From positions 79,619-143,618 of the IMG/VR virus record IMGVR_UViG_3300042374_001687: a stretch of DNA of 64,000 nucleotides. One strand, given 5' to 3'. A program made the translations under genes and the position numbers. The number at the start of each line of letters is the position of its first letter. The stretch's first letter is position 1. The stretch is from a virus. The notes under the pieces were generated by a model. It did not search any database. It had not been told where the DNA came from and saw only the letters and a list, made by a program, of their open reading frames with translations. Below, piece after piece: positions 14,176 to 62,313 of the stretch.

Positions 14176-14802
14176 ATGACCAATTTCAAAGAATGGCTCA
14201 TCTCTGAGGCCGCCATAGTGCCGGAGAAGATCCAGTATGACGAAAAAGGAAGACCCAACTTCCGCGTGTACTTCATGAATGAAGGCCAGACGATAGGGCT
14301 GGAGGTGCTGCAAGGGGGAGGATACAAATTTGCAGGCGATCTCATAAGCGATGTGTTTGGAAACACGCAAATTCTACAAGGCTACAAGTTGTTTAATTGG
14401 CACAACGATCTACCCAAGGACGGAGGCTACAGCCCGATGTTCTACGACATCGCCATGGAACTCGCGACAAAGAAGGGCGGATATCTGGTGTCCGCAACCT
14501 TGGTCAACAGGCTTGTCGGAGCAAAGAACGCAAAGGAAAACAAGGGCTACGCGGGAGGAGACACCAGCGATGGAGCAGAGGCCATCTACAAGTTCTACTA
14601 CGAAAGAAGAGGCGATGTTGAGAAGGTGCAGCCCAATCTGATTTTGATGAACGAACCAGACCAAGCCAACAAACCATATCTGTACGAACTCTATAAGAAA
14701 AGCCCGACAGTCATACCCAAACTGATCCAGATGAATTCAAAAGGACAGCCTGTGCTAGTGTCGGGGATGGGCATACATGCGAAGCCCATCATGAGCCTTT
14801 AG
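14176..14802 (+). CDS. Putative capsid-targeted protein, GNAT-like fold
   Basis: MTNFKEWLISE tag; GGYSPMFYDIAME...S..AEAIYKFYY pattern resembles GNAT motifs A/B. Confidence 0.6.
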   Translation: MTNFKEWLISEAAIVPEKIQYDEKGRPNFRVYFMNEGQTIGLEVLQGGGYKFAGDLISDVFGNTQILQGYKLFNWHNDLPKDGGYSPMFYDIAMELATKKGGYLVSATLVNRLVGAKNAKENKGYAGGDTSDGAEAIYKFYYERRGDVEKVQPNLILMNEPDQANKPYLYELYKKSPTVIPKLIQMNSKGQPVLVSGMGIHAKPIMSL

Positions 14803-15983
14803 AATCCGACCTTTCTCTTCTCTTCCTCCTCGTGGAAGTTGTCGTCGTCATTGTATATTTCGGCAAGGGTCATGGGAGAATCTGTCCTTCTCGAGGATCC
14901 CATGGACTCCAACACTCGGTTCGCATCCTCGGCGGACAAGGCTTTGAAGCAGTGCTCAAAAAGGAGCCTCCCCTTCCTAACAAGCGCCGAGTCTATGTTC
15001 TCGCGCTCTATGTTGAAGGTTGCGATGATCATGATGTTGAGGCAGTCGCCCAGTATGCCGTCGGTGATGTTTAGTATGTTGCTGACAGCACCGTTGTCTC
15101 CCGAGTCCCGGCTCCTTATTACCTTCTCGGCGTCCTCCAGCAAGAGTATGGAATTCCTGTGTCCCATCATAAAACTCAAAAAATCGGGACTTGTGAGCTG
15201 CTCGGCGGCGGCGGAGGAAAGATATATCACCTTCCTGTTGGTCTTAGTTGTGAGATACTTTATGAATGTGCTCTTGCCAGTGCCGGGGTCTCCTGAAAAA
15301 AGAACAAGGCCGTTCTTGTTTTTGGACAGAAGATCCACGACCCTTCCGAGTTTCTCGGAATAATCGCGGCCATAGTTGAGTTCAATGTCCACGGAGGGAG
15401 GAAGCTTTATATTAAATCTCTGGAGCGATAGCATCCCGTCAGAGGCGCAAAGCAGATAAACATTACTGTGCTTCCTGGGTTCGGGTTCCAATTCAAAACA
15501 GCCCTTGACCTTTTCTAGGGTCTCGGAAGAAGCATAAAGTATGCGACCTCTGTAATTGGTGAAATCTTTGTCCTCTTCCTCCTCCTCGTCGTCGGCCTCG
15601 TCAATGTGAAAATAATTCCTTCTCAAGAGGCTTTCTTTTCTGTATATCAGGATCATGGAGTCCTCGTACTCGTAGCAAATTTCCGTGTTGTCCACGAGTT
15701 TTTTGCCGTCTATAAGCGTCTCCAGTTCGCACTGAAAAAACCTCTTGGCGCCCATCTTTTCAAGGTTTTCCAGCGTGGAAACGCTTATGGGCGACTGGTA
15801 CTCGTAGACCGATGGCTGTTTGGAGTGACGGTCCACATAGTTGTAGAAAAAATTAAGGTATGTTCCGTAGTCGCCCGAGTTAGTCTTGCGACCGTAAGGA
15901 TTGGAATTTAGGTCTTTCATTCCATTATCATAATCCCGACTGTTAAAAAAATCAAGGCCTTTCAGGGATTTTTGAGTTATCAA
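14799..15983 (-). CDS. AAA+ ATPase
   Basis: GDPGTGKST Walker A, LLLEDAE Walker B, ATFN sensor I, IDSALVRKGRL arginine finger. Confidence 0.9.
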   Translation of the reverse strand: MITQKSLKGLDFFNSRDYDNGMKDLNSNPYGRKTNSGDYGTYLNFFYNYVDRHSKQPSVYEYQSPISVSTLENLEKMGAKRFFQCELETLIDGKKLVDNTEICYEYEDSMILIYRKESLLRRNYFHIDEADDEEEEEDKDFTNYRGRILYASSETLEKVKGCFELEPEPRKHSNVYLLCASDGMLSLQRFNIKLPPSVDIELNYGRDYSEKLGRVVDLLSKNKNGLVLFSGDPGTGKSTFIKYLTTKTNRKVIYLSSAAAEQLTSPDFLSFMMGHRNSILLLEDAEKVIRSRDSGDNGAVSNILNITDGILGDCLNIMIIATFNIERENIDSALVRKGRLLFEHCFKALSAEDANRVLESMGSSRRTDSPMTLAEIYNDDDNFHEEEEKRKVGF

Positions 15984-16102
15984 GCATACTATACAGATGA
16001 CGTTGGGTCGCTATGCCAATTCGTCGAAAAAAAGGCCTGCCCGACTATATAGAACTATGTGCCACGGTTTTTAGGGCTGAAAAAGACTAGGAGTATATTG
16101 AC

Positions 16103-17899
16103 ATGAAAAGAAAACTCATCGAGTACGATGCATTCAACAAAATAAAGACGGAGTCGCTGTCGAACGCCCAGAAGGAATTGGAGGCGGCGTCCAACCTTCT
16201 GGCCGTGGCTCTGGAGATGGAAGGACTTTCCTTGGACTCATTCGGGCCCAATGAAGTACTGTTCGAATCGCTGGACGGTGATTTCGTCCACGCAAACTAT
16301 GAAATAAAGAATGGTTATGTGCAGTTTGACAATGTCGAGCAGCTCGTGATCAACGAGGAGAGTGAGGCTGCCAAGTCGAAGGAAGTTATATCGCGCATGA
16401 TCGACTCGCTCATCGAGAGCGACGAGGCCAAGGCCAACGAGATCTTCGCGGAGTGGATGAACCTCCCAAGAACAAAGAGAATATTCACCGAGACCAAGAA
16501 GCTCCGCGTAGTCCCGATCCGAAAGAGGGTCGGCGGCAAAACAAAGATCGTCGGCTACAGAAAGGCGCGCTGGAGTGTCACTCCCCACTCGCACGAGAGC
16601 GGAAGCAAGACGGCCAAGAGAATGCGCATGAAGAGGGCCAGCCAGAGAAAAATGCCACTCGGCCTAAAGAAGTTCCTCGCCGCGAGGCGCGACAGGGTCA
16701 AGAAGACAATCGGCGAGTGGAATGTGATCGCCGAAAACGTGCTGAACTACCTTGATCTAACACAGAACGGCCCGGTTGTTGACCAGTGCGGCGTCTTGAG
16801 GAAAGAGAACGAGATCGTTTCGGTCAGGGTTCCGACCATGAAACTCAGGAACGAGGCCAAACTCCTCAAGTTCAACTGGGACACTATGAACACCGATGTC
16901 GTTGTCAAGAGAAGCAACGCCAAGAAGATGAATGAGAACAGCGAATTCGTCAAGGAAATCGCCGAACTCAAGAGAGCCAACGCCCTCTCCGACACCAAGT
17001 CGTTTGAGGAGTCACTCGAGAGCATCTCCACAAAGTATGCCGACTGCATCTATCTGACCGAGGGAGAACTCGCCAGACAGATAAAGCTGTGCCTAGAGTC
17101 CGCTGCGGCCAGCAACTACGACGATGAAACATGCCAGTTCCTGGCTGAGGGCATCATCAGGACGATCCACGAAAACTTCGTGGAGCGTGTCGCGAAGATC
17201 GTAAAGCTCGCCGGATCCAAGATCAACGAGGAAGCCGCCGACAAGTATGCCGAGTTCAAGGCCATCGCCGAAACCTATTTCAAGAAGTTGGACGAGTCCA
17301 GAATGCTTGAGATGCAGGCCTTCGTCGATGTGTATGAAGCCCTGAGACAAGTTCACGAACTAGCTAAGGAAGAGAACAACGAGATAGTTGCCGAGGAAGC
17401 CGCCGCTCAACTGGACAGCTTGCTGCCCATCGTGAAGGGCGAGGCTGAACTTTCGGCCGAAGTTCTCGGCGAGGCCGCCGAACTCCTATATGACATCGTG
17501 GAAGGCACGATGCCCGAGGAGTGGAAGGTTTCGGAGCCGGTCGTCAGCGCCGAGGGCGAGCACCCCGAAGTCGCCAAGAAGGGCAAGACTAGCCAGTCGC
17601 CCGCCGAGATGCAGGGCAGAACGCCCGAAGCTCAGCACACAAGCGACGGAAAGGAATGCGACGGTGACGCGGCCCGCGAACTTGAAGGCGAGGGCTGGAG
17701 CAACCTGGGCGGCGAGGGAGTCTACCCCGAGCTTGATAACCCGTACGTACTCAAGGCCGGAGAATACAAGATTGCCAACGAGAAGGACATTGATTCCGAC
17801 TCCGATCAGCTAGCGCACTGGGGAGACGCCGACACATGGCCGAACCTCCAGAATCCTTATTCCAAGGCCAGCGTCACGCCGAAGTCTGTCAAAGAGTAA
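16103..17899 (+). CDS. Prohead core / head-associated protein
   Basis: Glu-rich with a basic central patch, directly upstream of prohead protease; many L/I-x-E sites; structural-gene codon bias. Confidence 0.6.
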   Translation: MKRKLIEYDAFNKIKTESLSNAQKELEAASNLLAVALEMEGLSLDSFGPNEVLFESLDGDFVHANYEIKNGYVQFDNVEQLVINEESEAAKSKEVISRMIDSLIESDEAKANEIFAEWMNLPRTKRIFTETKKLRVVPIRKRVGGKTKIVGYRKARWSVTPHSHESGSKTAKRMRMKRASQRKMPLGLKKFLAARRDRVKKTIGEWNVIAENVLNYLDLTQNGPVVDQCGVLRKENEIVSVRVPTMKLRNEAKLLKFNWDTMNTDVVVKRSNAKKMNENSEFVKEIAELKRANALSDTKSFEESLESISTKYADCIYLTEGELARQIKLCLESAAASNYDDETCQFLAEGIIRTIHENFVERVAKIVKLAGSKINEEAADKYAEFKAIAETYFKKLDESRMLEMQAFVDVYEALRQVHELAKEENNEIVAEEAAAQLDSLLPIVKGEAELSAEVLGEAAELLYDIVEGTMPEEWKVSEPVVSAEGEHPEVAKKGKTSQSPAEMQGRTPEAQHTSDGKECDGDAARELEGEGWSNLGGEGVYPELDNPYVLKAGEYKIANEKDIDSDSDQLAHWGDADTWPNLQNPYSKASVTPKSVKE

Positions 17900-17917
17900 C
17901 AAATAGGAGGGACCCAC

Positions 17918-18637
17918 ATGAATCTGTTGCTAGAGCATGACCAGACGCCGGGCACTGTTTACGAGAATAGACTTATTCTCGGAGGCGGATGCTGCGCCGT
18001 ACTAAACGAGATGGACTTGCACGAGTCCGCCGGAACCGGCGGGAATGTCGTCAAGTTCAGGGGCAAGTTTCAAGAAGCCGACGCGATCAACAAGAACAAG
18101 AGGACATACCCGTTCAGTGTTCTGGACGATAATGTCAAGAGCCTCATGGAGACCATTTCCAGCGGCGGCCTCATCGGCGAGCTGGACCACCCCACGGACA
18201 GCATAGTCCACTTCACGAACGCCTCCCACAAGATCACAAAACTCTGGTGGGAGGGTAAGACCCTCATGGGTGAAGGGGTAATACTGAACACTCCCCACGG
18301 CAAGATACTCAAGGCGCTCATCAACGACGGCGTCCGAGTGGGAATCAGCAGCCGCGGGGTTGGTAACGGAAAGGTGAACGAGAACGGAATACTTGTCATC
18401 GGCGAGAGCTACAAGCTCATAACCTTTGATGCTGTCGCCGACCCGAGCACCAGCCAGGCTTTCCAGGAAAAAGTGGTTTCCAAAGAGAGCGTGACCCCCA
18501 AGACAGTCCAGCAGGAAGTTCATTCGGTTAAAAATGAAACCAGCAGCATACATACTCTGAGCAAAGAGCTCATTCTTGCTGCTTTCGGCGGGATTGTTCA
18601 ACAACAAGCCAGAGTTATTAAAGAGAGGACAAACTAA
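17918..18637 (+). CDS. Prohead protease (T4 gp21-like)
   Basis: NKNKRTYP, GELDHP, SHKI, LNTPHGKI, GISSRGVG, TFDAVADPS. Confidence 0.95.
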   Translation: MNLLLEHDQTPGTVYENRLILGGGCCAVLNEMDLHESAGTGGNVVKFRGKFQEADAINKNKRTYPFSVLDDNVKSLMETISSGGLIGELDHPTDSIVHFTNASHKITKLWWEGKTLMGEGVILNTPHGKILKALINDGVRVGISSRGVGNGKVNENGILVIGESYKLITFDAVADPSTSQAFQEKVVSKESVTPKTVQQEVHSVKNETSSIHTLSKELILAAFGGIVQQQARVIKERTN

Positions 18638-19551
18638 TGGAAAAAATTGTAGAGGCTTTGACCAAACTGCTCCCCGAGGACGCCGTCACGGAAGTCACCG
18701 AGGCAGTCAAGAACGAACTGGAAGGTGCCAAGCAGGCGTACGAGCAAGAGTTCAACTCCAAGCTCGAGGAAGCCTATGCAGAACTTTCCGAGGAACTGAA
18801 GACCGCCGAGGAGACCGCCATCCAAGGCTATAAGGAAGCGTACGCGATCATCCAGGATCTCCGCAGCCGCCTTGAGACGCAGCAGAAGGAATTCGAGGCC
18901 TCGATGGAAGAGGGCTACGAGGAGGCCTACCAGATGCTGCTCGCCGAGAAGGGCAAGAACGAGAACCTCGAGGTAGAGATGTACGAGCAGTTCAATACAA
19001 AACTCCAGGAGATGAAGGAGTACATGGTCGACAAGGTCGACGCCTTCCTCCAGTACAAGGGCGCCGAGATATACGAATCGGCCCACAAGGAAATCACGAG
19101 CGATCCGAGACTGGTGGAGCACAAGTCCGCCCTCGACAAGGTCGTGGAATGCGTTGCCAACTACATCGGGGACGAAGAGTTCGCCGGTGTCAACAACGCG
19201 AAGGTTGAAGAAATCGCCCGCAAGGCTGAGGAACTCAAGAGCCAGGTCAAGATCCTGGAGGCTAGGAACATCAGACTGAGCGCCGAGAACACGAAACTCA
19301 CCGAGGCCGTCAGGGAGACCCAGAAGGTCATCACCGAATCGGTCGAGGCCGAGAAGAAAGAAAGAGCAGAAAAGGCAAAGAATGTGCAGGGGAGAGGACG
19401 TGCCGTCAACGACTCTGAGCTTGTTGCCGAATGGAATAACAATAAGTCCGAAGAAAAGAAGCCAAACGTTGACACAACATTGGTCGAAAGTCTCGATCCT
19501 GACTTGCTTCGTCAAATGCAGGTCCTAGCCGGAACGAAAAACAACGACTGA
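18637..19551 (+). CDS. Prohead scaffold protein (gp22-like)
   Basis: Glu/Lys-rich coiled coil between protease and capsid genes. Confidence 0.8.
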   Translation: MEKIVEALTKLLPEDAVTEVTEAVKNELEGAKQAYEQEFNSKLEEAYAELSEELKTAEETAIQGYKEAYAIIQDLRSRLETQQKEFEASMEEGYEEAYQMLLAEKGKNENLEVEMYEQFNTKLQEMKEYMVDKVDAFLQYKGAEIYESAHKEITSDPRLVEHKSALDKVVECVANYIGDEEFAGVNNAKVEEIARKAEELKSQVKILEARNIRLSAENTKLTEAVRETQKVITESVEAEKKERAEKAKNVQGRGRAVNDSELVAEWNNNKSEEKKPNVDTTLVESLDPDLLRQMQVLAGTKNND

Positions 19552-19587
19552 TCAGAATCTTTAGTATAACCAAGGAGAAAACCAAAA

Positions 19588-21015
19588 ATGCAAGCAAATG
19601 CAAAGTTCCTAAATGAAGCAAGGGAGCTGGAATCTCGTTGGGCGCAAACAGGTTTGCTAGAGAACATAAGCGACAAGTACACACGTTCTTGCACTGCCGT
19701 TCTCCTCGAAAACCAGCGTCTCATCAACGAGAACTCGACCGACTCGGGCGACGTCGCCCAGTTCAAGAGGATCTCGATTCCGCTCGTCCGTAGAATTTAC
19801 CCCCAGCTGATCGCCAACAAGGTGGTCTCGGTTCAGCCGTTGCTCGGCCCGACCGGCCTCGTCTATTACCTCCGTTTTAGATACGGCAGCAACAAGGGCA
19901 GCGTCCGTGGAGCCACCAAGAGCGGCTTCCCCACAGACGACGCCAACTCGCTCCAGCAGCTCGCCAGCGGCGATGCCAACCTGAGCGTCTACTACTCGCA
20001 CCAGTTCGTTGAGAACGAGACGAGTGCCACAGACGCCGGCGGCACCAGCACCAGCGTGACGCTTGAGCACACCCCGGTTCTCGCCGGAACCGTGACCGGC
20101 ACCGTCTATGACGGTGACGTCGCCGTCCAGACCTTCGTGGTCTCGGAAAGCGGCTCGTTCACGTTCCACGACATCGGATCGCCCTCGGCCAAGGTCACCA
20201 GCGCCACGCTGAACCTGACCACAGGCGAGATGGGCCTGACTTGGAACAGCGACCCGGGTGCCAACCATGTTACCGTCTCGTACGAGTACAACATGGAATG
20301 CAACCAGGACCTCCCCGAAATCAACCTCGTTGTTGAGTCGGAAGAGATCGCCGCCAAGACCCGCAAGTTGAAGGCCGTGTGGAGCTACGAGGCCCAGCAG
20401 GACCTCCGCAGTCAGCACAACCTCGACGCCGAGGCCGAGCTCACAGCCGTTCTGGCTCAAGAGATCAACCTCGAGATCGACCGTGAAGTTCTCAGCGACC
20501 TCCGCAACAACGCGGGCACAGTCGCCTCGTGGGACTTCAATACCGCCCTTGGTGATACCATCAAGGAAAAGTATGAGTCGCTCTACGTCAAGGTCGTCGA
20601 AGTCAGCAACGTGGTGCATCGCAAGACGCTCCGCGGCGGCTGCAACTGGCTCGTCACCAGCCCCGAAGTTGCCTCGATCTTCGAGACAGCCACCGCTGGT
20701 TTCGCTCCGGCCCCCTCGGAAGGCTTCACATCGTCGCTCGGCATCCAGTATGTCGGCACCGTGAACAACCGTTGGAGACTCTACAAGGATCCGCTGTTCC
20801 CGACGGGACAGATCCTCATGGGTTACAAGGGTGACTCGTACATGGACAGTGGTTACTTCTACTGCCCGTACGTGCCGCTTACCCAGACGCCAGTCGTGCT
20901 CGATCCCGAGTCCTTCTGCCCGCGTAAGGGAATACTTACCCGCTATGGTAAGAAGCTCCTCCGCGAAGGCGCGAAGTTCTACGCCAGACTCAGCGTTGCT
21001 AATTTTGTGATTTAG
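19588..21015 (+). CDS. Major capsid protein (T4 gp23-like)
   Basis: LLENQ, PLVRR..PQLIA, VQPL.GPTGLVYYLR, AKTRKLKA.WS.EAQQDL, DAEAELT, EIDRE, GYFYCPYVPL, PRKGILTRYG. Confidence 0.97.
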   Translation: MQANAKFLNEARELESRWAQTGLLENISDKYTRSCTAVLLENQRLINENSTDSGDVAQFKRISIPLVRRIYPQLIANKVVSVQPLLGPTGLVYYLRFRYGSNKGSVRGATKSGFPTDDANSLQQLASGDANLSVYYSHQFVENETSATDAGGTSTSVTLEHTPVLAGTVTGTVYDGDVAVQTFVVSESGSFTFHDIGSPSAKVTSATLNLTTGEMGLTWNSDPGANHVTVSYEYNMECNQDLPEINLVVESEEIAAKTRKLKAVWSYEAQQDLRSQHNLDAEAELTAVLAQEINLEIDREVLSDLRNNAGTVASWDFNTALGDTIKEKYESLYVKVVEVSNVVHRKTLRGGCNWLVTSPEVASIFETATAGFAPAPSEGFTSSLGIQYVGTVNNRWRLYKDPLFPTGQILMGYKGDSYMDSGYFYCPYVPLTQTPVVLDPESFCPRKGILTRYGKKLLREGAKFYARLSVANFVI

Positions 21016-21050: not shown

Positions 21051-21087
21051 GAAACCCTCGGCAGAAATGCTGGGGGTTTTTTGTTTT
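21051..21087 (+). terminator. Intrinsic terminator after capsid gene
   Basis: AAACCCTCGGCA-GAAA-TGCTGGGGGTTTTTT. Confidence 0.85.
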
Positions 21088-28524: not shown

Positions 28525-28680
28525 ATGAAAACATTTAATGAATGGTTAGAATTGAGGGAGGCCGGTTTCTTCTCAAAAATTTCACGAATGGCTTGAATTG
28601 AAAGAGGCTGGGTTCTTCTCCGGTTTGTTCGGGAAGAAACCCGCTCCAGCGCCGGTCACGCAAGTCGGATCGGTGACATG
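28525..28680 (+). pseudogene. Two fused/tandem remnants of capsid-tag mini-genes
   Basis: MKTFNEWLELREAGFFSK then in +1 frame KFHEWLELKEAGFFSGLFGKKPAPAP. Confidence 0.6.
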
Positions 28681-29997: not shown

Positions 29998-30528
29998 ATG
30001 AAGACATTTTACGAGATGTTGCAGATATTGAGCGAGGAGGAATACGATGCGGAGAAAGACGCTCGTGCCATGGGATACAGTGGTGCGGCGGACGCTGACA
30101 GGAACAATTGGGGCAGCCCTGTCCGCCGAGATCCGAATGCCAAGATGACCCAGCAGGAAAAGAGCGAAATGTATCGGGACGCTGCGGAAAATCCCAAGAC
30201 GATTGAAGAATTCGTGAAGTTCGTGAATGGAATGAAGAATCCTGTAGTTCTGAAGTGGAGGAAGGACGATACTTGGATTTCCGGCAATTTCTTGAGCGAT
30301 CCCAGCAACTACATTGATCTAAAAGAACTTATCAATGGAATAGAAAAATACAGAAGTTTTAAAGAGTTTTGGAGGAGTCTGGATCTTTCTCCCAAGGATC
30401 ATATGATAATTGCAAACACGATAACGGGCTTGCTGCGTCAGGGTCTTCCAATGAGCGTCAGGGACGCCTTTGCGAGCGGGGAGTTGCGTTCCGGGGCTCC
30501 TTTCAGGAGCGGTAGCGGATGGGCATGA
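29998..30528 (+). CDS. Putative capsid-targeted protein
   Basis: MKTFYEMLQILSEE tag after GAGG RBS. Confidence 0.65.
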   Translation: MKTFYEMLQILSEEEYDAEKDARAMGYSGAADADRNNWGSPVRRDPNAKMTQQEKSEMYRDAAENPKTIEEFVKFVNGMKNPVVLKWRKDDTWISGNFLSDPSNYIDLKELINGIEKYRSFKEFWRSLDLSPKDHMIIANTITGLLRQGLPMSVRDAFASGELRSGAPFRSGSGWA

Positions 30529-30833
30529 TTAATTTTTACGGGTGGCTAGAATTGGCCGAGGCTCGGGCTCCAAAAGGCAGCCCCACCAGCCTTAACATAT
30601 GGGTGATGTTTGACTCTCTGGAGAAGGGTGGCGGGGTGATATCCGACCGCGTGGAACCGACCAGCTTGAGTCATCTTCGGAGGTGTTTGGAGGCGGGTCT
30701 TCTAGAGCGTGGGGCTTCGGGAGGTTTTGTACCAACCCAGAATGGTATAGAGGCGATGGAGAAGGATCTCGCCGTCAAGATGTCGCGGGATCCTAATTAC
30801 AAGAGGCCTGCGTGGATGGGTCCTGGCTCTTAA
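30525..30833 (+). CDS. Putative capsid-targeted protein, possible winged helix
   Basis: MINFYGWLELAE tag; HLRRCLEAGLLER...F.PT.NG wHTH-like wing. Confidence 0.6.
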   Translation: MINFYGWLELAEARAPKGSPTSLNIWVMFDSLEKGGGVISDRVEPTSLSHLRRCLEAGLLERGASGGFVPTQNGIEAMEKDLAVKMSRDPNYKRPAWMGPGS

Positions 30834-30844: not shown

Positions 30845-31180
30845 ATGAAAACTTTTAATGAATGGCTGGAAAAGAAGGCTGAGTCTTGGGATCCCGAGAC
30901 CCAAAGGTACCTGGACTGGCGCAAGCAGTTCACTGCGAAGTTCCCGGTTGGAGAATACAACCCTAGGAACGGCATGGACAGGGACAACCTTTTCGCCGGG
31001 CGTATATCTTGGGTTCTTGACGAGTTTGGTGGCGGGGAGCATGGCAAAATATGGGATTACATCGGAGGCGTCAATCAGTCCGAAAACAACTACTACATGC
31101 TTCTGGAGAAGCTTGTGGAAAGGGAATTCCCGGAAATGCTAGTTCAGTGGAAGGAGGATGGCGGAGGACGGGACGGCTGA
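30845..31180 (+). CDS. Putative capsid-targeted protein
   Basis: MKTFNEWLEKKAE tag. Confidence 0.65.
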   Translation: MKTFNEWLEKKAESWDPETQRYLDWRKQFTAKFPVGEYNPRNGMDRDNLFAGRISWVLDEFGGGEHGKIWDYIGGVNQSENNYYMLLEKLVEREFPEMLVQWKEDGGGRDG

Positions 31181-35059: not shown

Positions 35060-35149
35060 GGAGGTATATATCCACAACGAATCAAGGGAGTAAGCCGGCT
35101 GGCAATGCGAACATAAAAGATTTGAGAAGCACCATTTGGAAACATTGGA

Positions 35150-36177: not shown

Positions 36178-36552
36178 CTAGGAAACTTTTCCTTTCCATA
36201 CGGCTCCGAGCGAGGACAGATCCTTGGAGTGGGCTATTGATTCAAATCCTTGCCTAGCACGGTCGAGAAGGCTCCTTGCCAAGCCCTGTTTCCTGTATTC
36301 CGGTAAAGTGTAAACATTTGCTATTTGTCCGTTGATTCCGTCCTTGGATACGATCTGGAGGGCGCTGACAGGCTTGCCGTCAATGTAGTGGACATACCGG
36401 TACGAGCCGTGAGGCGAAAGGAACTTGACGGATCCGTCGGCCTCCCTCCCGACTTGTTTTTCTGGGCCGATCTGAGGTATGGTTCCGGCCGGGCCGAGGA
36501 GATATAACAGATCCGGCTCGCCAGATTCTGCAAGCCATATTTTAAAATTCAT
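36178..36552 (-). CDS. GNAT acetyltransferase with capsid-tag-like N-terminus
   Basis: IANVYTLPEYRKQGLARSLL motif A; MNFKIWLAE start. Confidence 0.8.
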   Translation of the reverse strand: MNFKIWLAESGEPDLLYLLGPAGTIPQIGPEKQVGREADGSVKFLSPHGSYRYVHYIDGKPVSALQIVSKDGINGQIANVYTLPEYRKQGLARSLLDRARQGFESIAHSKDLSSLGAVWKGKVS

Positions 36553-36606: not shown

Positions 36607-36975
36607 ATGAAGAGTTTTTACGAAATGATGAAGTTGATAGAGGAGGATCTGGGTCTGGGCGATCAGCAAGCCCCAATGGTGGCACAAGACCAGCCGGCTC
36701 CCGAGGCGGCCGGACAAGAGGGCCAAGAGACACCCGACCAAGCCGCCGCTCAACCTTCGGATCAAGAAAAGCCTAAGCACTACATGTTCTTTTCCAACTT
36801 GAAGGTCATAAAGAACATGGCAGAAGAGATGCTTTCCATGGATCCCTCTCAAGTTGACGCCCTCCTAGACGACGGTCACGACTGGGCTTCGGATCATGTT
36901 GCGACGAGCAAGGATGATGTGGAAGAAGTTTGCAATTGGCTCAAAAGCAACATGGAAGGCTCTAATCAAGGATGA
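36607..36975 (+). CDS. Putative capsid-targeted protein
   Basis: MKSFYEMMKLIEE tag; YMFFSNL...DGHDWA.DHVATSK. Confidence 0.7.
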   Translation: MKSFYEMMKLIEEDLGLGDQQAPMVAQDQPAPEAAGQEGQETPDQAAAQPSDQEKPKHYMFFSNLKVIKNMAEEMLSMDPSQVDALLDDGHDWASDHVATSKDDVEEVCNWLKSNMEGSNQG

Positions 36976-40696: not shown

Positions 40697-41434
40697 ATGG
40701 AATTTAGGGAGTTTCTTGAAGAACAAGAGTTCAAGGCATTTGACGAGCAGATGGCTCTTGAAGTCAATCTGTTGACCGTGCCGAAATTTGTGGCCGGGGC
40801 GGCTGCAAATGCTGTGACGCAAGCTGGCAGAGGGGTCGGCAACATCGTCGGCGGGGCGGCAAAGAGTGCCCTTGGTGCAGCCCGCATGGGTCTTGGCGGC
40901 CTCCAGATGATTGGAGGCGGTGTAGAGCCGGGCTGGGATAATGTTAAGGCGGGATGGGGTGCTGCTCAGGATGCTGGCCTCCAAATTGGAAAAGGCGTCC
41001 TTCAAGGGGCCGGCGTCGTTACCGGGGCCACCCCGCTTCTAAGAGGGGCTCAGGCTGCGAGCGAAAAGATAACCGATATAAGCGGGATTTATTCGCCCAA
41101 AGGAAAGAATTCTTGGCAAGACATCTTCGGAATGAATTCTTGGAAAAAAGATTCAAGTGAGTCTGGGGTCAAGAATTTAGAGCGTGCCAAAGCTGCCGGA
41201 AAGGCTGTTCCCTCTGAGAGGAGGAGTGGAGTAAGCTCAAAAGTTTCAGCCGAGGCAAGAGAGAAGGCTCTTGAAAGACAGCAGCTCTGGCTGCATTTGG
41301 TCGCCGCCTATAAGTCTTCTAGAAGTTTGGCCGAGAAGAAGAAACTCCAAGACACGATAAGAAAGGTGTTTCCGGAAAAGTACGCAGAGATAATGGCGCG
41401 GCAAGAAACCAAGAAGATAATGGACAAAAAATGA
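40697..41434 (+). CDS. Putative capsid-targeted Gly/Ala-rich (glycine-zipper-like) protein
   Basis: MEFREFLEEQE tag; GxxxG-rich amphipathic region; basic C-terminus. Confidence 0.65.
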   Translation: MEFREFLEEQEFKAFDEQMALEVNLLTVPKFVAGAAANAVTQAGRGVGNIVGGAAKSALGAARMGLGGLQMIGGGVEPGWDNVKAGWGAAQDAGLQIGKGVLQGAGVVTGATPLLRGAQAASEKITDISGIYSPKGKNSWQDIFGMNSWKKDSSESGVKNLERAKAAGKAVPSERRSGVSSKVSAEAREKALERQQLWLHLVAAYKSSRSLAEKKKLQDTIRKVFPEKYAEIMARQETKKIMDKK

Positions 41435-44926: not shown

Positions 44927-45307
44927 ATGCTATCGATGCAAGAATACAGGCAGTCCAAGAGTGTCAAAGGGCTCGTGCAGAAACTTTTTGAAGCCAGGCA
45001 AGTGATTCACACTTGTCATCTGAAGTCGAAGAGTTTCAGCGAACACAAGGCTTTGGACGATTTCTACAGCGGAATATTGGATCTTGCGGACGAGTTCGTC
45101 GAAACCTATCAGGGTCAATACGGAATACTCTCGGACTACGAGATACAGACCCAGCCGGTAAGCAATCCTTTGGAATATTTGGAGGATTGCGTGAAGATGT
45201 TCGTATTGGGTAGGGATTCCATTAAGGATTCCCATCTTCAAAACATCATGGACGAGATAGTTGCCATGACTTACAGAACCATATACAAGTTGAAAAATTT
45301 GAAGTGA
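44927..45307 (+). CDS. Ferritin/Dps-like (DUF5856-like) protein
   Basis: H..HL...SFSEHKALDDFY...D.F.ETYQG.YG...LQNIMDEI...YKL..L. Confidence 0.75.
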   Translation: MLSMQEYRQSKSVKGLVQKLFEARQVIHTCHLKSKSFSEHKALDDFYSGILDLADEFVETYQGQYGILSDYEIQTQPVSNPLEYLEDCVKMFVLGRDSIKDSHLQNIMDEIVAMTYRTIYKLKNLK

Positions 45308-47312: not shown

Positions 47313-47594
47313 ATGACCATCACCTTCAAGGAATTTGCAGATAGCAACGACGAGTCCAAGGACGAACAGAAGGCCCTCGAGGTCGTCAGGAAGGGAATGA
47401 ACATGCAGAGGGGCTCGGACTTCTGGGACGACTTAATAAGCCTTTGCGGGAATGCCGAAGGCATGTCCAAGCTTCTAGGGGTTCCGAGGGAAAAGATCAC
47501 CGGGCTGGCCGGCAGGATCGGCAAATTGAAGGATAAGGCAATAGATACGGACGAAACTAGTTCCAAAGACCGACTTATCAAAACGGGGAAATAA
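47313..47594 (+). CDS. Putative capsid-targeted protein
   Basis: MTITFKEFADS tag. Confidence 0.65.
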   Translation: MTITFKEFADSNDESKDEQKALEVVRKGMNMQRGSDFWDDLISLCGNAEGMSKLLGVPREKITGLAGRIGKLKDKAIDTDETSSKDRLIKTGK

Positions 47595-47596
47595 AA

Positions 47597-48235
47597 ATGA
47601 AGAGCATAAGAGAGTGGAGAGCGGACAGAGAAGGAAGAATTGGCAAAAATCTTATGGAGTTGAACCTCGCGACATCTCTAAGGAATTTTGTGGGCGGCGC
47701 CAACATAAAACAAGACCCCAGGATAAAGGCGGGGCTAAGGTCCAAGATACTTGGTCTTTGGAAGGACGCTCAAGGGTCGGGAATGAGCGCCCTTGACTTT
47801 GTCAGGCAAGTTTGGGCGATAGCCGGATCTTTGGCCACCGGCAAATCGGGAACAAACCTCAGCGTCGGGACGGCGGCAAAGGGGCTGAACGCAGTTGACG
47901 ATCACCATCAAGAGTGGGCGGAACTGAGCGAGTTGGTTCTGAAGGAGATGGTCGGAGATGCCGATATAGACAAGAGCCAGTTTGCAAAATTCGCGGGAAG
48001 CACAACCCTTGATGTAGACTCAAAATTGAAGCAGGAACTAAGGTCTAAGATAAACCACATAGGAGAGATGAAGGAGTTCTCTGGTCTGACTAAGGCCGAG
48101 TTGTTCAAGAAAATAGTTGCTGCCGTCGCCGCGTTAGAGGCCGATGTCAGCGGAAGCACCATATCCATCGCATCCGTTGCTGGCAAGATGAATAGTGCGG
48201 ACGACGACAAGGACATAGCCCAAGAGGTAAGATGA
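47597..48235 (+). CDS. Putative capsid-targeted protein with two internal repeats
   Basis: MKSIREW tag; duplicated LRSKI...SG...SGT.LSV...N..DD module. Confidence 0.65.
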   Translation: MKSIREWRADREGRIGKNLMELNLATSLRNFVGGANIKQDPRIKAGLRSKILGLWKDAQGSGMSALDFVRQVWAIAGSLATGKSGTNLSVGTAAKGLNAVDDHHQEWAELSELVLKEMVGDADIDKSQFAKFAGSTTLDVDSKLKQELRSKINHIGEMKEFSGLTKAELFKKIVAAVAALEADVSGSTISIASVAGKMNSADDDKDIAQEVR

Positions 48236-48489
48236 TTCCTTTCTCTAAGTGGATGGAGGGATTGTCCGAGCCCCAAGACAAAGTCGGCGAGAAAAATGCG
48301 GACCTGGAGAAGGTCGTTGAGAAACGGCTGATGCAGATGATCATGTCGCTGGAGATGGATGGCAGGGGAGCCAGGAAGGACATCATCCAGATTATAAAGA
48401 AAATAGTCGGCGGCGTGGCTGCATCCCAGCCTCAAGCACAGCCTCAGGCTGAGGTTCCGGCAGATCAAAACCCCGCTGTCGCAGGCTAA
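48232..48489 (+). CDS. Putative capsid-targeted protein
   Basis: MIPFSKWMEGLSE tag. Confidence 0.6.
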   Translation: MIPFSKWMEGLSEPQDKVGEKNADLEKVVEKRLMQMIMSLEMDGRGARKDIIQIIKKIVGGVAASQPQAQPQAEVPADQNPAVAG

Positions 48490-52878: not shown

Positions 52879-54876
52879 TCAGACTTGCTTTCTGAACCTT
52901 GATAGAGGGGCTTGCCTAGATGCATCGAACCTTGTGTTTATAGCGGGATTGCTCTTGATTGTGGGTCCTGAGGTAACGGAGGCGGCCTTTTCTCTTTGAA
53001 TTCTTCTTAGCCTATGCAAGGGTAGTTGTTCACATATGTACTTTAGGGCATTTTTGAGTTTAAGTCTTATGGTCTCTTGAAAGCTGAAGAAGGCTTTTGT
53101 TTGTTCCGGGGATATTGCGTCTTGGCCGGGGACAAAGAAGTGGTTCATGCCCTTATCCTTAGCCATTCTTATAGCAATGTTCTTGACGCTATCTGTACCT
53201 TGTATTCCCATGGCATTCATCCTGCTTAGACACTCCTCGCCTTCTTTTTCTTCGCCGCCCTTTGTGCCAGATGCGGTCATGTGAGTGACTATGTCTGCAA
53301 AGCCGGCCATTGAATTTACCCTTCCGTTTTCCGAGCAGTTTAAGCCGAACTTTATACATACGGCCAATGCTCCGTCGGGATTTGTTCGAGCCAATTCCTC
53401 AAGGACGCTCCTAAGATCTTGTATTATCTTTGACTTGTCATCTTCAGCGGATGCGGCGGCCATTGCCGGATTGGAGAATGATTGGGATCCAGCCTCGCCT
53501 CTGGTTTTTCCGTCATCGGCGACGGGATCGTAGTCGCCCTCGCCAGAATCTGAATCTTTTGTCCTGATGAGGCCCAAGTAACTGTAGCCTTGACGCTTTG
53601 CTCTCAAGAATTGAATCTTGTAGTTCTCTAGCGTCTCTTTGATCTTGTTGGGATCTAGGGAAAGCTTGTCGGAGTGTCTAGATTGGAGGAACAAAATGTG
53701 TTGTATTATCTCCAACCTCCATTTGTCCTCCTTTGTTTTGGCTTCCGGGGTAGGAGGGACTGGAGTGGTGATTTCTCCGTTTTCGCCACGGCCGGGGGAT
53801 CCCAAAGACTTCAAATAGTCCTCATAGAACTTTGTGCCAAATCCGGGCTTCTTGCCCTCTATGTCCTTGTTTATCAAGGTTCTCTTCTCAGATCTTGATG
53901 TTATTTCATCCTCTAGTCTGGCGCTGGGGGAATGGGCTGCCCTCATTGCCTCTTCCTCTTTGTCGGCCATGCTTTTGAGCGTGCTTCCGAAATACTTGAC
54001 AACCCTGTCCACGATCTTGTCGGTGTCGTTTTTGAGTTCTGACTTTCCTATGTTTCCAATCTCGCCCGCAATAGGACCCCAGCTGGCGGCCTTGCCCAAC
54101 TTTTCAGAAACATTCCTTCTTGTGATCATGTCATACATCAATGTGGCGAATTTTGTGAAGACCTCTTCTGGGTCCTCAAACAACTTTTGCCCAGTGATCC
54201 TCTTGCCAGCGGCAGTCGTGAACGAACCTCTGTTCCTATCGCTTGCCGCTATCTTTCCGTATGTTCTTGCAAAAACCTTTCTTAATGCTTCAAAGAACGA
54301 CTTTCTCTGATCTGGCAGGACTTGCTTTATCTCTTCCGGATCTATGTCGGGAGGAAGGTCGTTGCCTTTCTCCTTGGCTGCGGCATAAAGGGCTTTTCGT
54401 ACGGCCTCGCGGAACTTTTCATCGTTAAGCCCATGGAATTTTTGAGAGTTGAAGTACCCTGTCTTTTCCAGCAGCGGGATCGCCTCTAGCACATCGAATT
54501 CGGTCCCTAGATTTTCAAAATCATCATCTCCTGCGGCCTCGCCCAGCCGGCTGTCGGATTCTTCTGCCTCGCCAGCGAACTGCGGGTTCTGGGCGAGGTG
54601 CTCGTCGCGCATCCTTCTTAATTCCGCGATGTCTTTTTGCCTTTCCAAGACCGCGTTCCACCTTATCCACAAAACAGAGTCCTTGAGTTGTTTTTTAAGT
54701 TCCCTCATTTGGTCGTCAATGTTAGACCAACTGCCGGGATCATTCTCATCTAATTCTTCAAAAATGACTCTTGCAGTCTGCTCTGCCATGTCCTCCAAGA
54801 TGGATACGGCCAGCAAGGTCTCATAAAAATCAGTTCTTATGCCATCTGCTTGAAGCCACTCTTTGAAGCAAAACAT
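52879..54876 (-). CDS. Large putative capsid-targeted protein, possible divergent sigma-factor-like C-terminus
   Basis: MFCFKEWLQ tag; LRSVLEEL...KFGL...SVKNIA...ETIR..L.NALK region-4-like pattern. Confidence 0.55.
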   Translation of the reverse strand: MFCFKEWLQADGIRTDFYETLLAVSILEDMAEQTARVIFEELDENDPGSWSNIDDQMRELKKQLKDSVLWIRWNAVLERQKDIAELRRMRDEHLAQNPQFAGEAEESDSRLGEAAGDDDFENLGTEFDVLEAIPLLEKTGYFNSQKFHGLNDEKFREAVRKALYAAAKEKGNDLPPDIDPEEIKQVLPDQRKSFFEALRKVFARTYGKIAASDRNRGSFTTAAGKRITGQKLFEDPEEVFTKFATLMYDMITRRNVSEKLGKAASWGPIAGEIGNIGKSELKNDTDKIVDRVVKYFGSTLKSMADKEEEAMRAAHSPSARLEDEITSRSEKRTLINKDIEGKKPGFGTKFYEDYLKSLGSPGRGENGEITTPVPPTPEAKTKEDKWRLEIIQHILFLQSRHSDKLSLDPNKIKETLENYKIQFLRAKRQGYSYLGLIRTKDSDSGEGDYDPVADDGKTRGEAGSQSFSNPAMAAASAEDDKSKIIQDLRSVLEELARTNPDGALAVCIKFGLNCSENGRVNSMAGFADIVTHMTASGTKGGEEKEGEECLSRMNAMGIQGTDSVKNIAIRMAKDKGMNHFFVPGQDAISPEQTKAFFSFQETIRLKLKNALKYICEQLPLHRLRRIQREKAASVTSGPTIKSNPAINTRFDASRQAPLSRFRKQV

Positions 54877-54980: not shown

Positions 54981-55235
54981 ATGAAGTCATTTTTGAACTG
55001 GTTGAAGGAGGAGAACCTTGATCTGCCTGCTTGCAACGACGCTGCCGCGGCGGAGAAGAGCGTAGAGGCCGAGACGAACGAAAAGACCGTAGAGGAGAAG
55101 ACGAAAAGGACAGGGCTGAGCGCGAACTACCCCTCGGCTTATGTTTCGGGACAGTATCCCCACAAGTACTTCAACCCCTCAAAGGCCACAGCCGACCTGG
55201 ATATACAGAACATAGAAAAGAAAGACACCCATTAA
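54981..55235 (+). CDS. Putative capsid-targeted protein
   Basis: MKSFLNWLKEE tag. Confidence 0.7.
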   Translation: MKSFLNWLKEENLDLPACNDAAAAEKSVEAETNEKTVEEKTKRTGLSANYPSAYVSGQYPHKYFNPSKATADLDIQNIEKKDTH

Positions 55236-56344: not shown

Positions 56345-57130
56345 ATGCTATCCTACAAAGAATACAAGTTGCTCAACGAGTCTCTTTACGGAGCCCTCAA
56401 CCTCGGCTTGAGGAATCCAAACACGGTAGGAGGCATCGTCAGCGCTTCTTCCATAAACGGAACAGAAGCTGCCTTGGAGGCCCAAGCCGAAGAGGCACTG
56501 GAAGAGGCCAAGAAGATGAAAAAGAAGATGGAAGGCGACGAAGAAGAAGAGGAAGAAGATATGGAAGACTCGGAATCCTCAGAAAAGGATTGCAAGGACG
56601 AGGACAAGGACGAGGACGAGGACAAGGACGAGGACGAGGACGAGGACGAGGACAAGGACGAAAAGGAAGATGCCGACGAAGACGAAGAAGGCGAAGAGCC
56701 TAAGTTCATGAAAAAGAAATCCAAAAAAGAATGGTCTGAGGTGCTTGCAGATCTCGAGACCGTTTTGGAAGGCATAGACGATGAGGAATCCATTGCGGAG
56801 ATAAAAAAAGGAATGTCAATTCTCAAGGAAGGGCTAAAAAAAGGACTCAAGGGCCACAAAAAAGGTTGTGACTGCAAGCTCTGCAAGAACGCCAAGTCCG
56901 ACAAGGGATGCGAAGAGGGGTGCGAGTGCGAGGCCTGCAATAAGTCCGAAAAAGAGGACATGAAGAAAAACTGCGGGTCTGGATCCTATATGAAAAAAGA
57001 AGAGAAGGAGTGGTGGGATAGCGTCAATAGTATGCTCAATTCCGATCCCCTTCCCAAGAATTGGGACGGCGGATGGAGCGAGGTCGGAGAAGTCCAGCAA
57101 GCCGTGAGGGAAGACGGCAGCCAAACCTGA
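56345..57130 (+). CDS. Acidic prohead-core-like protein with capsid tag and Cys cluster
   Basis: MLSYKEYKLLNE; D/E tract (GACGAG/AAG repeats ~56594-56665); CDCKLC..CEEGCECEAC. Confidence 0.65.
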   Translation: MLSYKEYKLLNESLYGALNLGLRNPNTVGGIVSASSINGTEAALEAQAEEALEEAKKMKKKMEGDEEEEEEDMEDSESSEKDCKDEDKDEDEDKDEDEDEDEDKDEKEDADEDEEGEEPKFMKKKSKKEWSEVLADLETVLEGIDDEESIAEIKKGMSILKEGLKKGLKGHKKGCDCKLCKNAKSDKGCEEGCECEACNKSEKEDMKKNCGSGSYMKKEEKEWWDSVNSMLNSDPLPKNWDGGWSEVGEVQQAVREDGSQT

Positions 57131-60814: not shown

Positions 60815-60844
60815 TTTTAAGTACCCAATTATTTAGTCAAAGCC

Positions 60845-60873
60845 TTGACATTTTGGGTAGCGCCGTTCAAAAT
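60845..60873 (+). promoter_or_regulatory. Sigma70-type promoter
   Basis: TTGACA-N17-CAAAAT upstream of ATG 60892. Confidence 0.55.
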
Positions 60874-60891
60874 GTGGTCGGAGGCAAAGAA

Positions 60892-61845
60892 ATGAAGTTC
60901 ACATTCGGAAGCGACCCTGAATTCATTCTGATGGGCCAAAATGGCAAGTTCAAAAGCGCAATAGGGGTCATAGAAGGAACGAAGCAAAGCCGCCTCACCA
61001 TCGGCAAAAATGATTTTTTTTACGACAATGTGCTCGCTGAGTGTACCATAGAGGCCGCCTCCTGCAAAGAGGAGGCGATAGAAAACATCCGAAAAGCATT
61101 GGGCACATATTCCAAGATAGTTCATCCCTTTAAGCTGACGAACATTTCGGCGGCTGAATTTCAAAAAAATGAACTTATGCACCCGGATGCAAGAAAAGCA
61201 GGGTGCGAGGCTGAGTATTGTGCTTATGAAATGAAGAATGTGCCGGCGGGCGGCATCAAGAAGATTTTCAAAGAAAGTGGATTTAGAACAGCCGGGGGGC
61301 ATGTCCACTTGGGGACAAGTTTGGGAAAATCGCACGAAACTTGCATCATGCTGGTCCGGATGTTGGATCTTTTTCTCGGAGTCTCATCCATTCTAATAGA
61401 TGGTCGCGAAAGTAGTGTCCTAAGAAGAAGAGCGTATGGAAGTGCAGGAAGATACAGGCAGCCCAAACACGGCGCAGAATACAGAACTCTTGGGAACTTT
61501 TGGATATCCAGTCCAAAGTTAGTCACATTGGTATATGAAATATGCGAAAATGTAATTAAATTCACTGAAGACAACGTTCATGAAGAATTTTGGTCTATAG
61601 ACAAAAAGAAGTTGGATTCCGATGAATTCTGGAATTCCGGAGGGGATCCTGCGGCCTGCCACTGTTGTAAGGCTTATGATGTGAACTTGCTTAGATCCAT
61701 GTTCAGATTGAGGAGAGAGGAGGCTATCAAAAGGGGCTCTTCAATAATAGATTTCGCCCTCAGTTTCTTTCCTGCGTCGATAAAAAGAAGGATAAATGAA
61801 CTAGGATCCAAGAGGTTCAACATGTACAAGGAGTGGGGGATTTAA
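60892..61845 (+). CDS. phiEco32-like COOH-NH2 ligase (type 2)
   Basis: FGSDPEF, DNVLAE, GC...CAY, RTAGGHVHLG, RR.AYG.AG.YR..K.HG.EYRTL.NFWI. Confidence 0.88.
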   Translation: MKFTFGSDPEFILMGQNGKFKSAIGVIEGTKQSRLTIGKNDFFYDNVLAECTIEAASCKEEAIENIRKALGTYSKIVHPFKLTNISAAEFQKNELMHPDARKAGCEAEYCAYEMKNVPAGGIKKIFKESGFRTAGGHVHLGTSLGKSHETCIMLVRMLDLFLGVSSILIDGRESSVLRRRAYGSAGRYRQPKHGAEYRTLGNFWISSPKLVTLVYEICENVIKFTEDNVHEEFWSIDKKKLDSDEFWNSGGDPAACHCCKAYDVNLLRSMFRLRREEAIKRGSSIIDFALSFFPASIKRRINELGSKRFNMYKEWGI

Positions 61846-62313
61846 CTACTTTGGTCCCCTTTTCAGCGGAACTCGCTTTAACTTTTCTTTGTAGCGGTCT
61901 GGCTTATCCTTTAGTCCGTGCATCATGTTGACCAGCTCTTTGACCATTTCTGCTGGCGTTTCATTCTTGCACTTCTCTGATCTTTGGACTGAGACTGTCT
62001 TTCTGTCCTTGTTGTAAAACCCGTTAGAAATAATGAAGCAGCCGGAGCGCTCTTTGATGCTATAGGTTATAATTCCAACCCACTCCCCATCGTCCCAGTT
62101 TCCCGAAGATACGATGATTCTCATGGGTTTCTCGTCAAGTATTTGCTTGACATGGTAGCCTCGTTTCTTCATTCCAGCACTCACAAATCCTAGTGCTATT
62201 TTGGCAAAGGCCCCCAGAACCTCCTCTGTCTTGGTTCTGTAGTTAACCTCCACGCTGTAACGGGTGCCCTCAGTTTGCAGCGGCCTTTTTTCAATCCACT
62301 CTTGAAACTTCAT
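61846..62313 (-). CDS. Putative capsid-targeted protein
   Basis: MKFQEWIEKRPLQTE tag. Confidence 0.65.
   Translation of the reverse strand: MKFQEWIEKRPLQTEGTRYSVEVNYRTKTEEVLGAFAKIALGFVSAGMKKRGYHVKQILDEKPMRIIVSSGNWDDGEWVGIITYSIKERSGCFIISNGFYNKDRKTVSVQRSEKCKNETPAEMVKELVNMMHGLKDKPDRYKEKLKRVPLKRGPK

Follow-up and report, generated by a model that had tools for sequence, protein, structure and literature searches.

The stretch of DNA analysed here, called the window throughout, is the final 64 kb (64,000 nucleotides, nt) of one 143,618-bp viral contig, IMG/VR record IMGVR_UViG_3300042374_001687, and this work concerns a tag of about ten residues with which many of its otherwise unrelated proteins begin. 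Positions are those of the window, unless preceded by the word 'genome', which marks positions on the whole contig. The contig is classed as linear by IMG/VR and rated 28% complete by CheckV, so that it represents just one part of a much larger genome; we take the genome of the source phage to be roughly 0.5 Mb, sharing with T4 only a head module and a few other genes. A first-pass annotation, made from the letters of the window, had spoken of a genome-wide capsid-targeting tag on 17 open reading frames (ORFs). 'Genome-wide' can here mean no more than across a contig of the stated completeness, within which at least 12 more tagged starts do lie upstream of the window. All 17 N-termini translate as written there; 16 of them are credible as tags, and one, at 44927, had to be given up.

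The tagged genes

The consensus of the tag is M-(K)-(T/S)-F-x-(E)-W/F-L-x(0-3)-E, with its Phe 2-3 residues past the initiator Met. It was traced in a set of ~165 genes predicted with a self-trained codon model, all ATGs being inspected in six frames, and 170 predicted N-termini were compared. The total comes to about 28 tagged of roughly 170 genes, counting variants confirmed in orthologues, and 16 of them lie in the window. Eleven of these are strong: 14176, 28525, 30525, 30845, 36552(-), 36972, 40697, 48232, 54876(-), 54981 and 62313(-). In the lines below, lengths are in amino acids (aa), a slash stands at the junction after the tag, and the box is the promoter-like element treated further on.

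14176..14802, +: 208-aa protein, MTNFKEWLISE/A, between the portal and protease genes; matrix score 21.2
28525..28680, +: decayed tagged gene, a 23-codon ORF MKTFNEWLELRE... and then a stop, plus an out-of-frame tandem duplicate of the tag region
29998..30528, +: 176-aa protein, MKTFYEMLQILSE/E, Met-at-7 variant; AAGAGG ribosome-binding site 6 nt upstream
30525..30833, +: 102-aa protein, MINFYGWLELAE/ARAPKG; matrix score 17.1
30845..31180, +: 111-aa protein, MKTFNEWLEKK; matrix score 20.1
36178..36552, -: GNAT acetyltransferase, 124 aa, MNFKIWLAE/S; Pfam Acetyltransf_1, E 3e-7
36607..36975, +: acidic 122-aa protein, MKSFYEMMKLIE/E, Met-at-7 variant; GGAGG ribosome-binding site, box 17 nt upstream
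36972..37673, +: P-loop kinase, 233 aa, polynucleotide-kinase-like, MKSFKSWLLE/V; Pfam AAA_33, E 2e-15; phrog_505, E 9e-9
40697..41434, +: basic 245-aa protein (pI 9.8), MEFREFLE/E; matrix score 18.5; TAGATA box 4 nt 5' of the ATG
47313..47594, +: 93-aa protein, probable tag variant, MTITFKEF...; TAAATA box 5 nt upstream
47597..48235, +: 212-aa protein, probable tag variant MKSIREWRADRE, Ile at position 4; orthologue start MKSIKEWMSE
48232..48489, +: 85-aa protein, MIPFSKWMEGLSE/P; matrix score 15.4
52879..54876, -: 665-aa protein, MFCFKEWLQAD..., without an early Glu site; matrix score 19.5
54981..55235, +: 84-aa protein, MKSFLNWLKE/E; matrix score 17.4; relative G005 has MKSFLNWVKEE
56345..57130, +: very acidic 261-aa protein, T4-like Y4/Y7 tag MLSYKEYKLLNE/S; GGAG ribosome-binding site; codon score 81.5
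61846..62313, -: basic 155-aa protein, MKFQEWIE/K; matrix score 18.6; TATATA box 5 nt 5' of the ATG
44927..45307, +: rejected instance, MLSMQEY; DUF5856 (Pfam E 9e-22; phrog_858), homologous to T4 rI.-1 by BLASTP
Upstream of the window, at least 12 tagged starts from the position matrix: genome 593(-), 2643(+), 7377(+), 17643(-), 20498(+), 26962(-), 27157(+), 29782(+), 37081(-), 37773(-), 39860(+) and 76569(+)

The tag is not a chance product of the composition of N-termini, which the shuffles and the internal-ATG controls rule out. The expression ^M.{0,2}[FY]..[WF][LIMV] is matched by 23 of the 170 predicted N-termini of the whole contig, against 0.97 on average, and never more than 6, over 2000 trials in which residues 2-12 of all N-termini were shuffled. 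A stricter form, M-x(0-2)-F-x-x-W-[LIM], is found at 14 of 282 start-proximal ATGs, at one of 824 in-frame internal ATGs and at six of 3748 non-coding ATGs, four of which apparently head small ORFs missed by the gene caller. A position matrix separates the same signal cleanly: 23 starts reach at least 12.5 bits while nothing else exceeds 9.3, all 23 stand at ORF starts and never within a gene, and five were absent from the seed set.

Neither common descent of the proteins nor conservation of the DNA itself explains the shared start. When the tagged proteins are stripped of their first 20 residues and compared all against all by BLASTP, just two marginal hits are left; paralogy is thus rejected and the tagged proteins are, as had been stated, otherwise unrelated. 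The Leu position is encoded by CTA, CTC, CTG, CTT, TTA and TTG, besides codons for Ile, Val and Met, and the Phe by both TTT and TTC, a diversity that argues for selection on the peptide and against nucleotide-level conservation. The same peptide emerges in relatives: a logo of 89 tagged ORFs reads M-K-T-F-K-E-W-L-E-(N/E)-x-E-A, with F at 97% versus Y at 2% and W at 77% versus F at 22% at the aromatic positions 4 and 7, these ORFs coming from loci chosen independently of the tag and being themselves picked by an expression in which F/Y and W/F are obligatory.

Orthologues decide the less regular cases. In the 30525 family the tag reads MKTFYEWLELNE, MKTFNEMLAMLAE or MKSFYEMLPILAE before an identical junction, LxE/ARAPKG, and a swap of W to M at position 7 occurs among these orthologues of the neighbour of 29998; the Met-at-7 variants at 29998 and 36607 are considered valid because this family varies likewise. 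The tags of 47313 and 47597 are weaker in the contig and are probable ones, their orthologues reading tag-like (that of 47313 in L029 starts MLSFREFREFEEE, which reads MLSFREF...). The start at 28525 is tagged as proposed, but what follows is a 23-codon remnant with an out-of-frame duplicate, and relative L006 has at this locus an intact 209-aa gene with the same start. The 62313(-) gene has as its counterpart in G005 a 152-aa ORF starting MRFHDWMKLNE. As to 44927, its orthologue starts MISLQDY, without a tag, and the gene is a homologue of T4 rI.-1.

Head module, cleavage site and promoter-like box

The window also holds a T4-like head module, in which the tagged gene at 14176 is embedded:

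3888..5702: large terminase
11346..13841, +: portal protein (T4 gp20-like); phrog_213, E 3e-77; BLASTP to T4 gp20, E 1e-35
16103..17899, +: acidic 598-aa protein, core/scaffold candidate, directly upstream of the protease; 15 [LI]-x-E sites
17918..18637, +: prohead protease, T4 gp21-like, Peptidase_S77; Pfam E 7.7e-27; phrog_207, E 7e-50; BLASTP to T4 gp21
18637..19551, +: acidic, helix-prone 304-aa protein, scaffold candidate in the gp22 position; 12 [LI]-x-E sites
19588..21015, +: major capsid protein (MCP), T4 gp23-like; phrog_138, E 5e-83; BLASTP to T4 gp23

The gp21 homologue noted at 17918 is thereby established, whereas the portal, placed earlier at 16103, is encoded instead by 11346-13841. 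The two proteins flanking the protease, of 598 and 304 aa, have no family match in Pfam or PHROG and are candidates for core or scaffold from their position and composition; the 598-aa one has the top codon score of the window. In the MCP, [LI]-x-E sites are found at residues 10, 25, 41 and 48, before the conserved N-arm. BLASTP of the T4 ORFs against the contig gives matches for gp17, gp20, gp21, gp23/24 and rI.-1, as well as for T4 ORF 90540-92132 (short) and T4 ORF 115404-115811 (possibly gene 25), and detects no homologues of gp22, gp67, gp68, Alt or gp55. The MCP is 77.6% identical to that of the uncultured phage LR756511.1 (595 kb), compared to just 30-41% identity to that of any cultured phage, and at least 402 relatives with an MCP identity of 82-100% are found in IMG/VR.

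As for the cleavage site, a hydrophobic-x-Glu triplet with its first residue (P3) at residues 7-11 is present in 18 of the 29 tagged N-termini as opposed to 12 of the 141 untagged ones (p 1.4e-9), its rate in internal windows being 9%. Among the 89 tagged ORFs of relatives, such a Glu site is present in 71 when an aromatic P3 is allowed.

A second element accompanies the tag upstream. The sequence TA[G/T/A]ATA stands 4-5 nt before the ATG, with no Shine-Dalgarno sequence, in 10 of the 29 tagged genes, against 3 of the 141 untagged ones at the same distance and 6 of 141 at 3-7 nt. Besides the boxes listed above, a TAGATA box lies 4 nt 5' of the ATG of 14176 and 5 nt 5' of that of the GNAT gene at 36178-36552, and several other tagged genes have it 17-35 nt upstream. 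In relatives, too, most tagged genes are preceded by it. At 20-50 nt upstream, and followed by a Shine-Dalgarno sequence, it occurs before the portal gene, the 598-aa head-module gene and two unannotated genes at genome 40391 and 70136, which from their position are presumed to belong to the tail module. The box resembles, we presume, the T4 late promoter TATAAATA, and we take its spacing to be such that transcripts would start at or beside the A of the ATG. Its location before ATGs without Shine-Dalgarno sequences suggests leaderless transcripts from a late-type promoter. If the box is indeed late, enzymes of anti-restriction (ArdC-like) or tRNA repair would be understood most easily as cargo meant for the next infection.

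Cargo and portability of the tag

The proteins behind the tag are of very different kinds and sizes, from 54 to 665 aa in the contig and up to 947 aa in relatives. Those with a recognizable enzymatic function in the contig are a GNAT, a kinase resembling polynucleotide kinase (PNK), a tRNA nucleotidyltransferase and an ArdC-like anti-restriction protein. Family models, too, begin well past the tag: at residue 28 for AAA_33 in the 36972 kinase (orthologue start MNFKKWLLE), at residue 69 for the PHROG tRNA nucleotidyltransferase and at residue 132 for ArdC_N. Pfam and PHROGs give nothing for 14176, 29998, 30525, 30845, 36607, 40697, 47313, 47597, 48232, 54876, 54981, 56345 and 62313, and for the 665-aa protein (52879-54876) there is no lead in Pfam, PHROG or the ESM Atlas.

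Enzymes had already been named as cargo at first pass. The P-loop kinase at 36972 stands, and so does the GNAT at 36178, which had been listed separately from 36552(-) although both are one gene (its orthologue starts MTFKTWIESSE); the ferritin-like protein at 44927 falls with its tag. The protein at 14176, called GNAT-like, is a weaker case. In its family (alignment A1) F4 and E11 are invariant over 42-100% identity, and an AF2 model with a pLDDT of 85.6 places the tag in a separate helix of residues 4-11; the top structural hits of that model are all GNATs and all weak (Foldseek E ~0.1; VIA Z 5-6.3), so the predicted fold is at best weakly GNAT-like. The 56345 protein has a long Asp/Glu-rich run, a net charge of -39 and a Cys-rich C-terminus of CxC/CxxC spacing, and its high codon score suggests an abundant protein.

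The idea of a portable module, also put forward at first pass, is illustrated by phrog_2319, to which the 578-aa protein of genome 7377-9113 (L001) belongs. Its close homologues are all headed by a tag (MLGFKLWLEDE, MEFRQWLENEE, etc.), whereas in distant homologues, which are 400-450 aa long, the conserved domain comes first with no tag ahead of it. In the public gene call, P0001 (571 aa), the L001 protein begins at an internal Met, number 8, which hides the tag; the earlier ATG is supported by a GGAGG 5 nt upstream.

In ~2.07 Mb of related loci there are 186 distinct tagged ORFs, which fall into 142 families once the tag is trimmed; this number of families is a lower bound, and as part of the loci was chosen by the tag pattern, only the diversity is meaningful here and not the density. 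Pfam domains in 100 representatives include SNF2 and UvrD helicases, RNase T, RNA ligase, an RNA-repair HAD domain, AAA_33 kinase, low-molecular-weight and NIF phosphatases, isochorismatase, SET, DnaJ, GNAT, GP88 and several DUFs. A fragment of DNA polymerase A among a relative's tagged ORFs was discarded as a false positive (a poor tag, MTDFVEFLPRL, with no Glu). In the complete LR756511.1 there are 16 starts of the strict pattern versus 2 in the reversed control, and a 150-kb relative has ~16 tagged ORFs; in Flavobacterium phage immuto and Microcystis phage Mel-JY01, the closest phages in culture, tag-like starts are not in excess over the reversed-pattern control. The regions that flank the head genes of relatives are full of tagged genes of their own, yet few of the contig's tagged proteins have homologues there; judged from such comparisons of sequence, the turnover of cargo among relatives is fast.

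Other genes lie between the tagged ones. Directly after the capsid gene, two divergent genes, 21087-22265 (-) and 22280-23848 (+), both have TnsA-like endonuclease domains, one with DUF7487 and the other with a Mom-like/GNAT region and an endonuclease VII-like end, and both also touch a 'head closure' PHROG. They are followed by a low-GC island at 24110-28364 (-), with 27.6% GC compared to ~48% elsewhere, which holds three glycan-related genes, for a GT9-like glycosyltransferase, a sulfotransferase-like protein and a protein with RgpF rhamnan synthesis plus DUF6165; two of the three start with FDE.FY...FYQPYC, a motif seen too at genome 10085, and the island looks horizontally acquired. QueC-like paralogues at 34451-35077 (-) and 35150-35779 (+) and a class III aminotransferase at 48508-49851 (-) may point to DNA modification of the 7-deazaguanine type. 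An untagged full DnaJ, with J domain and DnaJ_C, is encoded at 41513-42367 (-), and a relative has a tagged J-domain protein.

Interpretation and known systems

The capsid-targeting sequence (CTS) of T4 is a textbook device and a tool of biotechnology, known to our knowledge from just a few small proteins of T-even phages. As the first-pass annotation stated correctly, the CTS MKTYQEFIAE heads the internal proteins IPII and IPIII and is removed by the prohead protease (PMC8442874; PMC9026906); it is cut once, and the mature protein remains in the head (PMC8442874). Suppressor analysis of IPIII assigned targeting mainly to residues 4 and 7, and processing to residues 8 and 10 (PMC9026906), and the CTS suffices to package foreign proteins (PMC3012670; PMC8442874). 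The conserved positions of the tag, i.e., F4, W/F7, L8 and a Glu at 9-12, are those T4 determinants. As a positive control, the tag expression was run on the T4 genome (169 kb), where it recovers IPII, IPIII and gp61.1, and nothing else convincing. T4 gp61.1 (NC_000866 18966-19130, -; L218) is a 54-aa hypothetical protein, encoded beside the primase gene, that starts MKTFKEFIKE.

The explanation that best accounts for these results, to which we give a probability of about 0.72, is that the tag is a capsid-targeting propeptide of the T4 type, greatly expanded in this lineage of huge phages, docking on the core and cut after its Glu by the S77 protease, with the mature protein kept in the head. 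The reading given at first pass is to that extent supported. In such a mechanism the tag would be a short amphipathic N-terminal helix, whose aromatic residues 4 and 7 would bring the nascent protein to the scaffolding core and dock it there during prohead assembly. The Peptidase_S77 protease (17918-18637) would then cut after the Glu of the hydrophobic-x-Glu site, and the mature cargo, consisting of small basic and acidic proteins and of enzymes, would stay inside the DNA-filled head, many of its members probably being delivered with the DNA into the next host. Docking, packaging, cleavage, head retention, injection and anti-defence function are all steps that we infer. That most of the cargo is injected and acts in takeover or counter-defence has, in our judgement, a little less than an even chance, and some of the tagged proteins may be core or inner-body material.

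A number of observations weigh against this explanation. The clade is uncultivated, a search of the literature for a virion proteome of it found none, and the case for this phage and its close relatives is built from sequence. The scaffold on which the tag would dock is a candidate assigned just by position and composition, with no family match. The number and the size of the candidates, with helicases of 860-950 aa in relatives, imply an unusually heavy load of protein. No canonical [LIVM]-x-E stands at the expected place in 11 of the 29 tags; 54876(-) has Asp in place of the expected Glu, and some tags read W-L-E. The start of gp61.1 is CTS-like though this protein is not known as a head protein, hence the motif alone is no proof of packaging. 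Finally, that the box is late is our inference: a search of this 28% complete record for DNA polymerase A, DnaB and sigma-70 region 2 turned up none of them, which leaves neither early or replication genes to compare with nor a phage sigma factor.

A rather unlikely explanation, though one with arguments of its own, accepts that the tag directs proteins into the prohead and holds that most of them are assembly components, degraded or staying in the head, and not injected effectors. T4 itself has core proteins, gp67, gp68 and gp22, that are fragmented by the same protease (PMC5694885), and the 14176 gene sits between portal and protease, which is the T4 site of gp67 and gp68. Several tagged proteins are also small, of low complexity or extremely acidic, like the 56345 protein with its charge and the Gly/Ala/Ser-rich products of genome 29782 and 76569. 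Against this reading stand the many enzymes that lack an obvious role in assembly (GNAT, PNK-like kinase, tRNA nucleotidyltransferase, ArdC-like protein, helicases, RNA ligase, phosphatases), and the fast turnover of the tagged set among relatives whose MCPs are >83% identical, which fits accessory cargo better than assembly parts.

It is improbable, to a clearly higher degree, that the tag is a signal for some other machine of phage or host, such as a chaperone or hub, a compartment or a protease that times turnover, and that its likeness to the T4 CTS is convergent. Packaging is, after all, a predicted fate, the gp61.1 start is CTS-like without a known head location, and SNF2 and UvrD helicases or a DnaJ-domain protein could equally act in the infected cell. 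Such a signal would, however, have to match the T4 determinants one to one, with a Glu site after them, in a phage that has a T4-type S77 protease and head module, while two cultured distant T4-like phages do without the motif; and an ArdC-like protein behind a late-type promoter makes most sense if packaged for the next infection. That the conservation reflects a nucleotide-level need of leaderless mRNAs, i.e., an A/U-rich and unstructured 5' coding region, and no peptide signal, can hardly be credited: the ten tagged genes with the box right before the ATG and the A/T-rich consensus codons would suit it, but six Leu and both Phe codons are used while the identity of Trp and Glu is kept, genes with a good Shine-Dalgarno sequence or with ATGA-overlap coupling carry the same tag, and the N-termini of the six untagged genes that have a box at 3-7 nt are unrelated.

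If the tag is a capsid-targeting propeptide, promoter box, start codon and tag would together form one compact 5' cassette able to head any gene. It is tempting to go further and regard this cassette (late box, leaderless AUG and tag) as a general device of gene capture, which would convert nearly every gene acquired into virion cargo and supply the phage with a rapidly exchangeable and pre-loaded arsenal of dozens of enzymes entering the cell before phage gene expression, so that sequence would suffice to read off the injected proteome of uncultivated phages; we advance this tentatively, as something that may be true but that we would not wager on. Candidates for such an arsenal are an RNA-repair kit (PNK-like kinase, tRNA nucleotidyltransferase and RNA ligase), helicases, ArdC-like proteins, acetyltransferases and phosphatases. 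The out-of-frame tandem duplicate found at 28525-28680 is a hint that the shared cassette may also serve as a recombination site that shuffles the cargo.

In the fragment the tag is carried by about one gene in six, and the at least 142 families of relatives include many enzymes tied to RNA repair and anti-restriction. Should packaging be confirmed, the tag would provide a rule, applicable to sequence only, for predicting the injected proteins of such phages; counter-defence enzymes packaged in advance would emerge as a major strategy of huge phages; and the tagged families would constitute a natural catalogue of proteins that tolerate packaging in, and ejection from, a capsid. For annotation there is a more immediate problem, since a public call that starts at an internal Met, as P0001 does, conceals the tag.

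Among known systems the closest is the CTS of T4 IPII and IPIII, which likewise comes right after the initiator Met, spans about ten residues, has Lys-Thr at 2-3, aromatic residues at 4 and 7, then a hydrophobic one at 8 and a Glu near position 10, and heads otherwise unrelated proteins in a phage with an S77 protease and a T4-type portal and capsid. Like the genes of the T4 internal proteins, the cargo genes here are exchanged rapidly between relatives. The tag differs in its preference for Phe at 4 and Trp at 7 and in its looser Glu (F+5 to F+8), in being often joined to a box 4-5 nt upstream, and in being known from sequence alone; and whilst all of T4 has 3 matches to the expression, there are ~28 tagged genes in 143.6 kb here, with sizeable enzymes among their products. 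The polymorphic internal proteins of T-even phages (T2, T6 and others), which have CTS-like starts, show the same concept of a conserved targeting leader on anti-defence proteins that are injected, varied and quick to evolve (PMC3012670; PMC9026906). One of them, IPI*, inhibits the GmrSD restriction enzyme. Those are a handful of small basic proteins at few loci, as opposed to the scattered clusters here, which include acidic proteins and enzymes.

For a large enzyme as cargo (e.g., the tagged SNF2, UvrD and ArdC-like proteins) the precedent is DarB of P1, a protein of 250 kDa that is packaged via an N-terminal signal, delivered, and protects the incoming DNA (PMC9024508). The Dar proteins, though, have no consensus leader, and nine residues are insufficient for their packaging (PMC9024508); they bear no sequence likeness to the tag. 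Enzyme cargo has further precedents in T4 Alt and in giant phages with tens of ejection proteins (PMC5694885). The phiKZ-like giants (SPN3US, phiKZ, 201phi2-1) resemble the present phage in their many internal or ejected proteins and in a homologous prohead protease that cuts after Glu (PMC5694885), but their propeptides are mostly longer than 100 residues and cut at A/S-x-E, with no common short leader, in contrast to the uniform 10-residue tag described here. Reviewers of T4 had suggested the CTS as an evolutionary route for loading varied proteins (PMC9026906), and we found no description in the literature of a tag system expanded in this way. The device itself, then, was already known from T4; what is new is its presence in a very distant lineage of huge phages, its scale, its enzyme-rich cargo and its fusion to a leaderless promoter cassette.

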